Shown here: positions 9,774-61,353 of the stretch, piece after piece
How positions within the stretch are numbered: the stretch's first letter is position 1
How the letters are laid out: each line of letters starts with the position of its first letter
IMG/VR virus record: IMGVR_UViG_3300021371_000009
Location: 10,443-74,442 of that record
DNA from: a virus
Reading direction: 5' to 3' (one strand)
Length of the DNA: 64,000 bases
The notes under the pieces: model-generated
The model's database searches: none
What the model was told of the DNA's origin: nothing
The model's input: only the letters and a program-made list of their open reading frames with translations
Position numbers and translations under genes: made by a program

Positions 9774-11336
9774 TTAATCTTCGTTTTTTGCCATCTTAGT
9801 AATAGTAGCATAAAAAACTGCTTTACCCTTTTCTTCACCATATCTATCGGTGAAGTCTTTCATAGGCACTTCTTTTTCCAACTTCTTCATCTTATCTTTT
9901 TCTGCAGTTGTTAGTTCTCTTTCAGAAAAATCTTTTAAACTTAAATCTTCATTTTGTCTGCGTAGAACAGCGGCAACTTGCTTGTCTTTTGAAAGACCTC
10001 TTGCAATCTTTTCAATTGCTTTTACTGCACCTGTCATGTTACCACCTTTGTAACGCTTGTCAGATGCTACACCAATCGCCATCTTTCTTTGCTTCGGTGT
10101 AAATCTTTCATCAAGTTCTTCTTCTTCTTTGAGTTGTGACTTATCTACTTTGTCACCAATTGCTTGTGCAGTTTTTAATCTTGCCATTTTTAGTGGTGCA
10201 ACATCTTTAAAACGCTTTTCAAGACTTCTGCGATCCAATCTCAAATCTCTCTCATCACTACCCATTGAATAGATTTTCATATCTGTTCCAACAAGAGCAT
10301 ATCTCATCTTTGGTGCTTCATCAAGTTCAACTTCTTCTGGGATAACTCTCATGTTACCAGAAATGTAAGCAGGATGCATCTTCAATGCTCTCTGAGCATC
10401 TTTCTCATCGTTGCTGTCAACATAAACTTTAACTGTTTTCTTTGCGCTATCAGCATCTACACGAAACTTAATACGACCCATCTTCTGAGCAATCTCTTTA
10501 CCAATACCATCGCCCATCATTCTGTTGAAGATTTTTTGTTTCTTAGGGTCTTTGAAGTTACCATCTTTGTCGAATAGTTTTGCAAGATGTGGGGGTAGAC
10601 CTGCTTCGATAAGTTCTACACTCTCTTTCATCAACTCTTTAACTGATTTCAAATCAAGTTTAAGTGCTTTAGCAATTTGTTCTGCAGTCTTTCCAGAATC
10701 CATCATCATATGAAACTGCTTCATTTTACCTTCGTTGATATCATCATCAAAGTACTCATTGATTTTTAGTTGTTTAACTGCGTTATCGAAATCTCTTTTT
10801 GATTTAGCAAGTACTGTTTGTAATTGCATTTTTGATGCTGGTTTTAGACCTTGATACATTGTAAGTAACTTATCAGCAACTTTAGGATCAACCTTTGCTT
10901 TTTTACCATCAGCAAACTCAATAGGTTTCATACCTCTAAGTGATACTGCTTTTCTTAACTGCATCATAATATTTTTGTCTGCCGCTTTTCTATCATCGTC
11001 AGTGGCAGTGTTATCGATGTCTGCGGCGTCTTTACCTGTTCTTCGACCCATTGCTTTAAACGCATCACGCTTTGCACGATTTTCTTGCAACTCTTCACCC
11101 ACAAGTTTCAAGTAATCATTAATAATTTTGTCTGTATCTTTTTCACTACGATATGAACCGGCATACTTTTCTTTATCAAAGTATACAAAGTACTTACCAC
11201 CTTTTGTAGTAACAGTAACTTCGATGTTCTTCTTACGACCTACTTTCTCGGTCTTTACTATCTTTTCGCCACTGTCTACTTTGACTTTTTCAGCGAGGTT
11301 GATAGTCTGTTTTAATTGGGTGAATGTTACAGACAT
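9774..11336 (-). CDS. Lys/Glu-rich prohead core / internal head protein with many (I/L)xE sites
   Basis: 520 aa at the gp68 position between gp67 and gp21; LAE, LQE, INE x2, LIE, LDE x2, LKE motifs. Confidence 0.65.
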   Translation of the reverse strand: MSVTFTQLKQTINLAEKVKVDSGEKIVKTEKVGRKKNIEVTVTTKGGKYFVYFDKEKYAGSYRSEKDTDKIINDYLKLVGEELQENRAKRDAFKAMGRRTGKDAADIDNTATDDDRKAADKNIMMQLRKAVSLRGMKPIEFADGKKAKVDPKVADKLLTMYQGLKPASKMQLQTVLAKSKRDFDNAVKQLKINEYFDDDINEGKMKQFHMMMDSGKTAEQIAKALKLDLKSVKELMKESVELIEAGLPPHLAKLFDKDGNFKDPKKQKIFNRMMGDGIGKEIAQKMGRIKFRVDADSAKKTVKVYVDSNDEKDAQRALKMHPAYISGNMRVIPEEVELDEAPKMRYALVGTDMKIYSMGSDERDLRLDRRSLEKRFKDVAPLKMARLKTAQAIGDKVDKSQLKEEEELDERFTPKQRKMAIGVASDKRYKGGNMTGAVKAIEKIARGLSKDKQVAAVLRRQNEDLSLKDFSERELTTAEKDKMKKLEKEVPMKDFTDRYGEEKGKAVFYATITKMAKNED

Positions 11337-45865: not shown

Positions 45866-46588
45866 CTAGTTTTGTTTGAGTATAATATCAAATGCCGCTG
45901 TTACTCTTGCATTGTTTGACCGAACTGATGCACGAACATCAATATCAGACTTCTCTGGAATTACTCTAGGAACTGAAAACTCGTATAAGTATTGTCCACC
46001 TGCACCAGATACTTCAAATGAGTGACCAATTCTGAATGCATCTTGTCCAAAATAACGAACAAACATATTACCTGTTGCATCTGCGCCAGACTGAACTGTT
46101 GCAGTTCCTTTCATTAGATAACCTGTGTAACCTGCAGGAATTGTATAAATCGCCATCAGAGTTTGACCAATACCAGCAGTAATTCTTGCAACAACTGTAG
46201 ATGATACTTTAATATCGATATTCCCTACATTATCTGCACCTGAAGAAACATATGCTCTAAAGACACGAATGAATGTTACTGAATCCGTAGTTGCGTTTGC
46301 TGATGCATTTGTGAGTGTGCAAGTTGTAGAAACACTCTCGTAATTTTCGTCAAGTCCTTCGATAGTTATTACTTTGTTAGCATCACTAGCATTTGCTCTA
46401 TCTACTGTGACTGCAGATGCAGATGAGAATGATGACCATGGATACGGTGTGTCATCAATATCCCAAACTGTACCAGTTGTGTTCTGAGACATTGCAGGAA
46501 CAGCACCGAACTTGTGTATATCAGATACACCTTTGAGTAAACCTCTTGCTAGATTTATGCGCTCATCATTGAAAAAGTAGTTGCCCAT
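45866..46588 (-). CDS. Conserved phage protein, probably virion-associated
   Basis: 240 aa; KFG, I.GLD.NY, F.RVFRAYV, GQTLMAIYT.PAG, IPEKSDI; late promoter at 46615-46622. Confidence 0.6.
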   Translation of the reverse strand: MGNYFFNDERINLARGLLKGVSDIHKFGAVPAMSQNTTGTVWDIDDTPYPWSSFSSASAVTVDRANASDANKVITIEGLDENYESVSTTCTLTNASANATTDSVTFIRVFRAYVSSGADNVGNIDIKVSSTVVARITAGIGQTLMAIYTIPAGYTGYLMKGTATVQSGADATGNMFVRYFGQDAFRIGHSFEVSGAGGQYLYEFSVPRVIPEKSDIDVRASVRSNNARVTAAFDIILKQN

Positions 46589-59531: not shown

Positions 59532-59750
59532 TTAGCGTTGTGAAACGAAAGAATTCATCTCATTTGCTAGTTTGCTGATATCTTCGAATGTCGGAAATGC
59601 TGGCATTTCTGGAAACTGAACATCTAGTCCTGCTTCTTTGTCTGCATAGTATTTCTCTTTAAGATTATTGATATCAGTGTGATATTGCTCTGTGAGCAAC
59701 TCTCTGGCGCTTTGTATCATACTAAAGCGTAAGTCGAATGGATTACTCAT
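59532..59750 (-). CDS. Hypothetical protein (72 aa)
   Basis: ATG at 59750 with AGGAG SD; NPF.LR......A..LL..QY...P..PT..DI...A..M..FV. Confidence 0.75.
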   Translation of the reverse strand: MSNPFDLRFSMIQSARELLTEQYHTDINNLKEKYYADKEAGLDVQFPEMPAFPTFEDISKLANEMNSFVSQR

Positions 59751-59789
59751 ACTATTTCTCCTTGTGTGTATGTGTGTAATGTAGGGTGA

Positions 59790-60268
59790 AGCAATTGCTT
59801 CTTCTGTTTCCAGGCGTCCCCACAACACCCAGAAGATTATGCCGCTAGGCGAACATCTTCATATGCAATGTTATCGTTTGCATTTATGTTTTTGAATTCT
59901 CTTCATGCCTTCTTAATGCAGTCGAACCTATTTCGCCCCCATCATAAACACACTATTCTTCAAACCAAAGAAGGAAATCAAAACTTCCTGTAATTTGATA
60001 TAATACAAACATTAGAATACAAAACCAAATAAACCAGAATAAGTAAAAACCTAAGGTTCGATATATCTTTTCCATTGGAAGGTATTTTTCAAATAATGTT
60101 TGGATATCCCATACATATTTAAATTGTATAAACCAACAGAACCATCTTACATATTTGTTTGGCGTATTTTCTTTTGTTATCTTAGTCATATTTCCTTAGT
60201 GTGTTTATGGTGGAGGCGGTGGGTACTGCCCCCACGTCCTACAATCCTCCAACATGTGTCATCAAATT
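59790..60268 (-). ncRNA. ssrA: Circularly permuted (two-piece) tmRNA, alphaproteobacterial type; outer ends approximate
   Basis: Acceptor piece ...GGACGTGGG-GGCAGTA-CCCACCGCCTCCACCA ends at 60208; coding piece starts GGGGGCGAAATAGGTTCGAC at 59940; G3.U70 pair; tag ANDNIAYEDVRLAA* at 59881-59837. Confidence 0.93.
59953..60189 (-). CDS. Aromatic-rich small membrane protein encoded inside the tmRNA intervening segment
   Basis: 78 aa; AAGGA SD a few nt before ATG; TM segment LGFYLFWFIWFCILMFVLYQI. Confidence 0.7.
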   Translation of the reverse strand: MTKITKENTPNKYVRWFCWFIQFKYVWDIQTLFEKYLPMEKIYRTLGFYLFWFIWFCILMFVLYQITGSFDFLLWFEE

Positions 60269-60274
60269 CAATTC

Positions 60275-60305
60275 TATTTATACTACATTCAAGCAACTTT
60301 GTCAA
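60275..60305 (-). promoter_or_regulatory. Superimposed sigma70 and late promoter for the tmRNA
   Basis: TTGACA (60305-60300), 17 nt, TATAAATA (60282-60275). Confidence 0.75.
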
Positions 60306-61353
60306 GAACATATGGGTCGATATCTAGATATTTACCCCATTCAGTATAGTAGTGTCTCATACCTACTTCATCATGTATAGTTCCATTCTCATGTCTTCCA
60401 TGTAGAATGTTTCTTGTTTCTGTACCTTCACGCATTGTTGTACCTTGACCTGCTACACCAATAAGGTCTTCGTGCAAGTTTCTACCGAAAGGTCCCCATA
60501 TACTATTGTGATGCTTGATACGAGTTTGTCTTTCTTCTGGTGTATCTTTTCTTAATCCATATCCACGAAACTCAATCAATACTTTATTCGGACCAAGTGG
60601 TGTTACTGTGTCTGAACGATATGCACTCCCACGGAGGTTAAAGTTGAATCCTGGAAAGAGGTCGACCATGTACCACTGGTTGGGCGGCAGATTGGGAAAA
60701 GATAAATCCCCTCTATCTTCAAATCCGTCATACTCTTCGTAATTAACAGTAAAACTACTAACATTAACATGACCGTTATCAAAAGGAATATTTTTTCTAG
60801 CGAAATATTCATCATTGAATCCTGACACTCTATTAAAGTAATGCATGAAGTCGTGATAGAATTCACTGTTTGTGTCATGCCACAGTTTGTAGTTTGTATC
60901 TATCACTGCTTTGTGATAGTGAAAGACTTCCATTTCTTCTGTGTCGATTGCGTCTGCGATACAATCAAATGCGCCTGCAGTCCATTCTTCTACTGACTGT
61001 GTAGGGTTAGGGTCAAGCGTTACCCACACCATACCCCCATGCTTGATTTCACAATGCAATGGCACACCAGATGGTAAGTGTCCAATGTTACCAGAGAGTT
61101 TATTTACTCCACTGTCTCTTGTTGCTTTTACACCACTTCCAGTATTTACTGCAAGTACATTTACTCCAGCAATCTGTGTGGTTCTATAATCACCAACATT
61201 ATACATCTCTGAGATGTGACACATCGGTACCCAGACTTTACTGAATATTAATTCCTGTTCTTGTTTATATATTTCGTAGTTATTATATGCTCTACTACTA
61301 ATTGCTTCTATTCGTGGTGCTGATGACCACTGCTTATGATTACGAGGTGGCAT
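60289..61353 (-). CDS. msmA: Ring-hydroxylating oxygenase alpha subunit, methanesulfonate monooxygenase MsmA-like, lacking the Rieske motif
   Basis: IF.KVW...CH.SE....GD, NYKLWHDTNSEFYHDFMH Fe site, NLHEDL; no CxH or CxxH anywhere; MsmA assignment is from recall, not a search. Confidence 0.78.
   Translation of the reverse strand: MPPRNHKQWSSAPRIEAISSRAYNNYEIYKQEQELIFSKVWVPMCHISEMYNVGDYRTTQIAGVNVLAVNTGSGVKATRDSGVNKLSGNIGHLPSGVPLHCEIKHGGMVWVTLDPNPTQSVEEWTAGAFDCIADAIDTEEMEVFHYHKAVIDTNYKLWHDTNSEFYHDFMHYFNRVSGFNDEYFARKNIPFDNGHVNVSSFTVNYEEYDGFEDRGDLSFPNLPPNQWYMVDLFPGFNFNLRGSAYRSDTVTPLGPNKVLIEFRGYGLRKDTPEERQTRIKHHNSIWGPFGRNLHEDLIGVAGQGTTMREGTETRNILHGRHENGTIHDEVGMRHYYTEWGKYLDIDPYVLDKVA

Follow-up and report, generated by a model that had tools for sequence, protein, structure and literature searches.

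A candidate small membrane protein gene nested in the intervening segment of a permuted phage tmRNA gene

The permuted tmRNA gene and its nested reading frame

Transfer-messenger RNA (tmRNA) is a textbook stable RNA, and in the permuted form of its gene the spacer between the two pieces is treated as disposable. The subject of this analysis is a permuted tmRNA gene whose spacer is filled by an open reading frame (ORF) of 78 amino acids (aa), located on the minus strand of a 64,000-nt stretch of viral DNA (positions 10,443 to 74,442 of IMG/VR record IMGVR_UViG_3300021371_000009), referred to throughout as the window. The source record, a viral contig of 74,442 bases from an uncultured phage, has the gene content of a T4-like aquatic myophage, with the genome estimated to be ~41% complete. 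Reading along the minus strand, a putative promoter is followed by the acceptor piece of the tmRNA, by the intervening segment (IVS), which we define as the segment between the CCA of the acceptor piece and the first nucleotide (G1) of the coding piece, and finally by the coding piece with its tag frame (Table 1).

The identity of the gene is supported by two Rfam models, each aligned at full model length and each above its gathering score. RF04321 (tmRNA_permuted) matches 59837-60269(-) with 69.6 bits against a gathering score of 47, and RF01849 (alpha_tmRNA) matches 59793-60309(-) with 58.3 bits against 50, in agreement with the initial annotation, which had described a permuted, alpha-type tmRNA; its coordinates for the acceptor piece, the CCA, the 267-nt spacer, G1 and the ORF likewise hold against both the sequence and the Rfam alignments. 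The permuted order is present, with CGCCUCC-A-CCA (60218-60208) lying upstream of GGGGGCG (59940-59934), and these strands form a 7-bp acceptor stem that includes G3.U70. Read from the sequence of the minus strand, the coding piece begins GGGGGCGAAAUAGG at 59940, and its tag frame (GCA AAC GAU ... GCG GCA UAA, 59881-59837(-)) encodes ANDNIAYEDVRLAA, with an alanine resume codon, a hydrophobic end and a stop. The window carries a permuted, alpha-type, phage-encoded two-piece tmRNA gene that looks to be in working order. ARAGORN called no tRNA or tmRNA anywhere in the window, in our opinion because the IVS is long.

Conceivably, insertion of a small gene has left this tmRNA an inactive relic, with only the protein gene, driven by the old promoter, still of importance, and both the ARAGORN result and Rfam scores lower than those of short-IVS relatives could be read in that way. 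However, the insertion lies exactly in the discarded segment, within a hairpin loop whose closing stem has been kept, and the acceptor stem, G3.U70, the T-arm, the tag frame and the stop are all intact. In addition, phages that carry the nested 78-aa ORF and have diverged until its synonymous sites are saturated keep a tmRNA above threshold (Rfam scores of 69-103 bits). In the nested-ORF lineage L147-L149 the acceptor stem reads GGGGUCG/CGACUCC instead of GGGGGCG/CGCCUCC, a compensated change at acceptor pair 5, from which we argue that the tmRNA remains under selection. A relic is therefore very improbable in our judgement.

The AUG of the 78-aa ORF stands 18 nt past the CCA, and the frame occupies 88% of the IVS, an occupancy equalled by no ORF in 200 shuffles of the IVS loop. 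A protein search returned 20 clusters of homologues (46-94% identity, 76-103 aa), in which the motifs NKYVRW and YVWDI.TL.EKY are invariant. Among nested copies in diverged phages, the pairwise ratio of nonsynonymous to synonymous substitution (dN/dS) is 0.04-0.14, with dS near saturation, and the copies differ mainly at third codon positions (e.g. 9/2/25); these values favour a gene over the unconserved frame, with dN/dS near 1, that the initial annotation had named as the alternative. Copies at least 80% identical are nested in the IVSs of permuted tmRNAs, and the promoters and pairing helices of those tmRNAs differ. More distant homologues (L151-L159, 49-67% identity) are ordinary operon genes, start/stop-coupled to their neighbours, with no tmRNA nearby by Rfam. 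At L133:1501-1760 (also in L134 and L135), a 90%-identical free-standing copy is linked by ATGA coupling to the 99-aa gene before it, and a different tmRNA, whose IVS is short, follows directly downstream; after its stop, this copy retains a remnant of the 3′ stem arm, UAGUGUGAUUAUAAU. This arrangement suggests that the gene has moved between nested and free-standing positions by recombination.

The predicted product combines a basic N-terminus and a conserved helix (NKYVRW...YVWDIxTLxEKY) with a single segment, at about residues 45-65, that is strongly hydrophobic by hydropathy and predicted to span the membrane. An AlphaFold model consists of two long helices at moderate confidence (predicted local distance difference test, pLDDT, 68). 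On this comparative evidence, the 78-aa ORF appears to be a genuine protein-coding gene under purifying selection, with a membrane protein as its predicted product. A role on the host envelope from within the inner membrane, such as in superinfection exclusion or the timing of lysis, is no more than a guess. An untranslated ORF, conserved through constraint on a structured spacer RNA, has in its favour that the minimum-free-energy (MFE) fold of 59925-60222, which retains the entire closing stem, is more stable than shuffles (z = -4.6), and that the protein matches no known family. Such an explanation is hardly credible, given the low dN/dS with its third-position bias, amino-acid motifs kept down to 46% identity, and homologues that are translationally coupled operon genes far from any tmRNA.

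Table 1. Features of the permuted tmRNA gene and its intervening segment in the window
Feature	Position	Strand	Details	Source
Acceptor piece	60208..60269	-	pairing-helix 5′ strand, T-arm GUGGG/GGCAGUA/CCCAC, acceptor 3′ strand	Rfam alignments and sequence
Acceptor piece 3′ end	60210-60208 (CCA)	-	discriminator A, then CCA	sequence
IVS, 267 nt	59941..60207	-	unaligned insertion between CCA and G1	both Rfam alignments
Coding piece	59793..59940	-	G1 = 59940, acceptor 5′ strand GGGGGCG	Rfam alignments and sequence
Coding piece 3′ end	~59793	-	approximate, where the RF01849 model ends	RF01849 alignment
78-aa ORF	59953..60189	-	including stop UAG 59955-59953	ORF list
Shine-Dalgarno-like AAGGA	60193..60197	-	at stem/loop junction, 3 nt before AUG	sequence
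Closing stem 5′ arm CAUAAACACACUA	60197..60209	-	includes C75 and A76 of CCA	repeat search, MFE fold, covariation
Closing stem 3′ arm UAGUGUGUUUAUG	59943..59955	-	first three bases are the ORF stop UAG	repeat search, MFE fold, covariation
Putative tmRNA promoter	60275..60305	-	-35 TTGACA 60305-60300, 17-nt spacer, TATAAATA 60282-60275	sequence

The closing stem and the intervening segment in phages and hosts

An inverted-repeat search identified two 22-nt arms (59934-59955 and 60197-60218) that are 91% complementary. The inner 7 bp of this repeat are the acceptor stem, and these are followed by one U-A pair, one A.C mismatch and 13 perfect pairs formed between CAUAAACACACUA and UAGUGUGUUUAUG. 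The perfect 13-bp inverted repeat of the initial annotation, overlapping the CCA at one end and containing the ORF stop at the other, is thereby confirmed, and it prolongs the acceptor helix.

To place both the stem and the segment that it encloses, we compared the window with three sets of loci. The pattern-based set (L003-L122) comes from viral contigs scanned for the T-arm and acceptor sequence of the window and holds at least 120 loci; a further 37 viral loci (L123-L159) were fetched via relatives of the 78-aa ORF; and a matching scan of bacterial genomes gave a host set of at least 120 loci, mostly from Alphaproteobacteria and including many Pelagibacteraceae, with 115 measurable IVSs. 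Across 92 distinct IVSs among the matches listed, 92.6% of cells at the 13 stem positions are paired, compared with 70.1% when partners are shuffled (maximum 73.6%, n=500) and 31-54% in slid registers. Most of the 13 positions show multiple pair types; covariation, the lack of which the initial annotation had named as refuting its reading, is present.

The stem is not specific to loci with an ORF. Its median length is 13-14 bp in each IVS length class (Spearman rho -0.03 against IVS length), it measures ~13 bp at an IVS of 29 nt and of 388 nt alike, and it is also carried by ORF-free IVSs of 29-99 nt, the short ones of which are plain hairpins (e.g. the 29-nt UAAACACUUUUACUGAGAGUGCUUAUGAU). 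With the same stem length at all IVS lengths and in ORF-free IVSs, the stem would be ancestral, and the ORF sits in its loop. The closing stem thus appears to be an ancestral, covarying feature of these phage pre-tmRNAs that prolongs the acceptor helix. A stem that serves the ORF in particular, as the initial annotation had implied, does not survive this comparison; a dedicated clamp, in which a longer loop is closed by a longer stem, was likewise considered and rejected, because stem length is independent of IVS length.

The length of the enclosed segment varies widely among phages. In the pattern-based set, IVSs form a continuum from 3 to 267 nt among the matches listed, and the phage maximum rises to 388 nt once ORF-fetched loci are included. 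Among the matches listed, 98 phage loci have a median IVS of 94 nt and a maximum of 266, with 42/98 reaching at least 100 nt, whereas the 115 host IVSs, with a median of 31 nt, extend to 95 nt at most, and none of the 115 reaches 100 nt; the Pelagibacter IVS is ~10 nt. Within these samples, long ORF-bearing IVSs are a phage feature. Among 52 distinct IVSs of at least 100 nt, some of which come from loci fetched via the 78-aa ORF, an ORF fills at least 70% of the segment on the sense strand in 39, compared with 10 on the antisense strand, and in 31 the length of the sense ORF exceeds that seen in at least 95% of shuffled loops. In the pattern-based set alone, the IVS ORFs fall into about 12 similarity groups among the matches listed. 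Groups B-E, with several diverged members each, show coding-type divergence, with ratios of nonsynonymous to synonymous differences (pN/pS) of 0.06-0.5, uncorrected for saturation.

These frames share how they begin and end. A Shine-Dalgarno (SD)-like motif precedes the start of most IVS ORFs of relatives, and unrelated IVS ORFs of other phages begin at an equally short distance after the CCA. The stops often fall on conserved tmRNA sequence, either as UGA just before G1 or as UAG at +11 to +13 of GGGGGCGAAAUAG, and in several groups, including that of the cultured OM43 phage Melnitz, the frame passes G1 and stops 13-42 nt within the mature tmRNA. Most IVS passengers look like small membrane proteins. 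A singleton IVS ORF at L022:6425-6595 matches Pfam DUF6356 (33.5 bits against a cut-off of 24.4), and the IVS ORF of L104/L088 is DUF2061-like, below cut-off. The 388-nt IVS at L136:1359-1746 (also in L137) holds two coupled ORFs, the first of 41 aa and resembling the Melnitz-type IVS peptide (...KYEDLCK), the second a member of the 78-aa ORF family whose GTG start overlaps the TGA of the first; an IVS would therefore be able to hold a small operon. The IVS loop appears to be a tolerant slot in which different small genes are lodged in different phages. The initial annotation had known of no described case of this arrangement; the window is not unique, since many related phages, Melnitz among them, carry other small ORFs in the same place.

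Transcription, translation and processing of the precursor

The position of the putative promoter relative to the tmRNA is conserved. Among the matches listed, TATAAATA stands 66-74 nt before the CCA end in 86 of 126 distinct related loci, and a -35-like hexamer lies 16-18 nt upstream of it in 63 of those 86. From its sequence, TATAAATA can double as a sigma70-type -10 (TATAAA) and a T4-type late promoter, and the fixed layout fits combined early and late use of the T4 type by a presumed promoter. A generic sigma70 scan did not list this promoter, because its rule calls for a -10 that ends in T; nor did the same scan list any further promoter-like site on the minus strand from the tmRNA promoter to the ORF. 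Lacking its own promoter and starting just after the CCA, the ORF would be transcribed from the tmRNA promoter, within the pre-tmRNA. The alternative, a separate transcript starting inside or just after the acceptor piece, draws on the fact that phage middle and late promoters are short and easily missed. It is improbable in view of the mere 18 nt that separate CCA from AUG and of an acceptor piece with neither a minus-strand sigma70-like site nor a second TATAAATA; moreover, the same short distance from CCA to start in unrelated ORFs elsewhere fits a shared tmRNA promoter.

The reading we favour, and hold to be likely, is that this is a permuted phage tmRNA whose IVS loop has been expanded by a real small-membrane-protein gene, whose translation most likely precedes processing of the precursor. 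Here, the tmRNA promoter, through its early sigma70-type and late T4-type activities, would drive a single pre-tmRNA carrying the ORF. Ribosomes would load at the SD while the 3′ arm of the stem, ~250 nt further on, is still to be transcribed, and translation would take place mainly on RNA that is still nascent or unprocessed. Folding of the stem and the tRNA-like domain would then allow ribonuclease (RNase) P to cut at G1 and 3′-end nucleases to trim at the CCA, giving the mature tmRNA, and this maturation would end or alter the life of the ORF message.

The initial annotation had proposed instead that the excised IVS, with its paired ends, is the main mRNA, so that protein output is tied to tmRNA maturation. 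In the window, the IVS contains the ORF together with its SD and stop, so that once excised it would be a complete message; the MFE fold includes the stem, and paired RNA ends would protect from end-dependent nucleases (RNase E, 3′ exonucleases). However, stops located 13-42 nt past G1 in several groups, including Melnitz, leave the excised IVS without a stop codon, and excision would therefore not be the general route, possible as it is for the window. An equally long stem is found in ORF-free IVSs, and the SD at the stem junction should impede initiation once the stem has closed. In the E. coli model, the 3′ trailers of tRNA-like molecules are removed by endonuclease cuts and exonucleolytic trimming, so that release of an intact fragment is not guaranteed. 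We consider it doubtful that the excised segment is the main message.

Returning to translation on the precursor, a further possibility can be put forward tentatively, namely that the IVS is an evolved, exchangeable expression slot in which translation and tmRNA folding or processing are mutually exclusive, thereby metering small membrane proteins against tmRNA. Such exclusion is suggested by the position of the SD, at the closing stem, and by that of the stop, which falls either within the stem or inside the 5′ end of the mature RNA. If this were true, frames that run past G1 would create non-stop messages that are resolved by the phage's own tmRNA.

RNA libraries hold matching sequence. Twenty metatranscriptome runs contain part of the window stretch, all as assembled contigs, and contigs cover the IVS in two of the four runs examined. 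An exact 333-nt RNA-library contig covers the entire IVS and both junctions, an exact 295-nt contig (59940-60234) runs from the T-arm through the IVS and ends at G1, its library record being marked 'DNase', and related-phage contigs with other IVSs are present in the same runs. High depth at 60207-60239 is uninformative for this phage, because that sequence is common to many tmRNAs.

Several points weigh against translation of a genuine gene on a working pre-tmRNA. The RNA contigs are weak hints only, because contigs cannot show ends, strand, level or transcription, and DNA may have been carried over. With the SD abutting the stem, the folded RNA may translate poorly. The 78-aa protein has no match in Pfam or PHROGs and none by tblastn of 50,697 GenBank phage records, and its ESM Atlas hits reach at most 0.81, which is chance level. 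The Rfam scores of the window (58-70 bits) lie below those of some relatives (up to 121 bits), and we therefore infer the function of its tmRNA from conservation. Finally, because L123-L159 were retrieved through the ORF itself, they are not an unbiased sample of arrangements, and in the pattern-based set L051 is the only other locus with the 78-aa ORF family among the matches listed. The pseudogene, non-coding and independent-transcript readings are nonetheless each disfavoured by the specific results given above.

Genomic setting, known systems and meaning

The upstream neighbour, a 354-aa oxygenase-like gene (60289-61353(-)), has its stop (60291-60289) inside the spacer of the tmRNA promoter; its only match is to PF00848, the catalytic domain found in alpha subunits of ring-hydroxylating oxygenases (E = 1.6e-7), and a Rieske domain was not hit. 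The next gene downstream (59750-59535) encodes 72 aa, with ATG at 59750 and an SD of AAGGAG, and shows no similarity to the late-transcription coactivator of Melnitz. In one relative, a tRNA gene lies ~200 nt downstream of the tmRNA (L150:2069-2151).

Circularly permuted, two-piece tmRNA genes in Alphaproteobacteria were reportedly described by Keiler et al. in 2000, with Caulobacter as the model, in which the IVS is missing from the mature two-piece tmRNA. The gene in the window shares with alphaproteobacterial tmRNA genes the order of acceptor piece, CCA, IVS, G1 and coding piece, the T-loop GGCAGUA, G3.U70, a tag ending in LAA and a leader/trailer pairing that prolongs the acceptor helix. 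In contrast, host IVSs are at most 95 nt among the matches listed, and the 267-nt IVS of the window appears to be a protein gene.

Two-piece tmRNA genes have been published in marine T4-like myophages, namely OM43 phage Melnitz and pelagimyophages (Buchholz et al., 2022, PMC9004378). The GenBank records nearest to the tmRNA region of the window are four Melnitz genomes, the match being limited to the T-arm and acceptor segment. Melnitz and the window have in common a phage two-piece tmRNA, the promoter layout and the sequence of the IVS closing stem (CCAUAAACAC ... GUGUUUAUGAU-G1). In Melnitz (MZ577097, ~46096-46260; L001:2552-2716), GGAG and AUG follow directly after the CCA, inside the annotated SsrA feature, and the frame runs for 54 codons through G1 before stopping 42 nt inside the mature coding piece; a message cleaved by RNase P would therefore have lost its stop codon. 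This ORF is of another family and, in contrast to the ORF of the window, which stops within the IVS, continues past G1. A glutamine riboswitch follows the tmRNA in Melnitz (L001:2854-2902), whereas Rfam gave no riboswitch hit at 59750-59793 in the window. The GenBank record of Melnitz has no coding sequence (CDS) annotated in the IVS, and the accompanying paper contains no discussion of it, the word 'intervening' occurring 0 times (PMC9004378).

Passengers in stable-RNA genes have precedents. The 2025 tmRNA database paper lists as unusual IVS contents one intact tRNA-Ala gene and one repetitive element, and with 79 phage sequences it reports no protein-coding IVS passenger, 'ORF' occurring 0 times in its text (PMC11915505); such cases agree with the window in that the IVS of a permuted tmRNA can carry passengers, and differ in that the passenger of the window would code for protein. 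The same paper describes homing-endonuclease genes in self-splicing group I introns of tmRNA genes, located in the T-loop (PMC11915505). There too, the mature RNA lacks the part of the tmRNA gene in which the protein gene lies, but the window has no intron or endonuclease, and its segment would be removed by ordinary tRNA-type end processing. IVSs of 23S rRNA with an ORF, S23p, in Coxiella burnetii and Leptospira are described as a selfish element (PMC4990558). They resemble the window as stem-closed segments that are excised from the precursor of a stable RNA and contain an ORF, and they differ in lying at helix 45 of 23S rRNA and in their RNase III route, whereas the window ORF has an SD, strong purifying selection and free-standing relatives. 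With a tmRNA as host RNA and an ORF that matches no Pfam family, the resemblance of the window to S23p is analogy only. In open-access text, a published description of protein genes in tmRNA IVSs was not found.

With a selected protein gene in the spacer, and different genes there across many aquatic phages, one transcription unit would give both a rescue RNA and a protein. Nested genes of this kind are missed by gene callers and by tmRNA finders alike, as seen in the blank ARAGORN output here and in the Melnitz tmRNA, which stands in GenBank without a CDS. The arrangement raises a testable question, that of competition between translation and RNA processing on one molecule, and experiments are possible in a cultured system, as Melnitz, which grows on OM43 strain H5P1, also carries an ORF in this slot. 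In essence, the spacer of these tmRNA genes would be a site at which phages deposit and exchange small membrane-protein genes.

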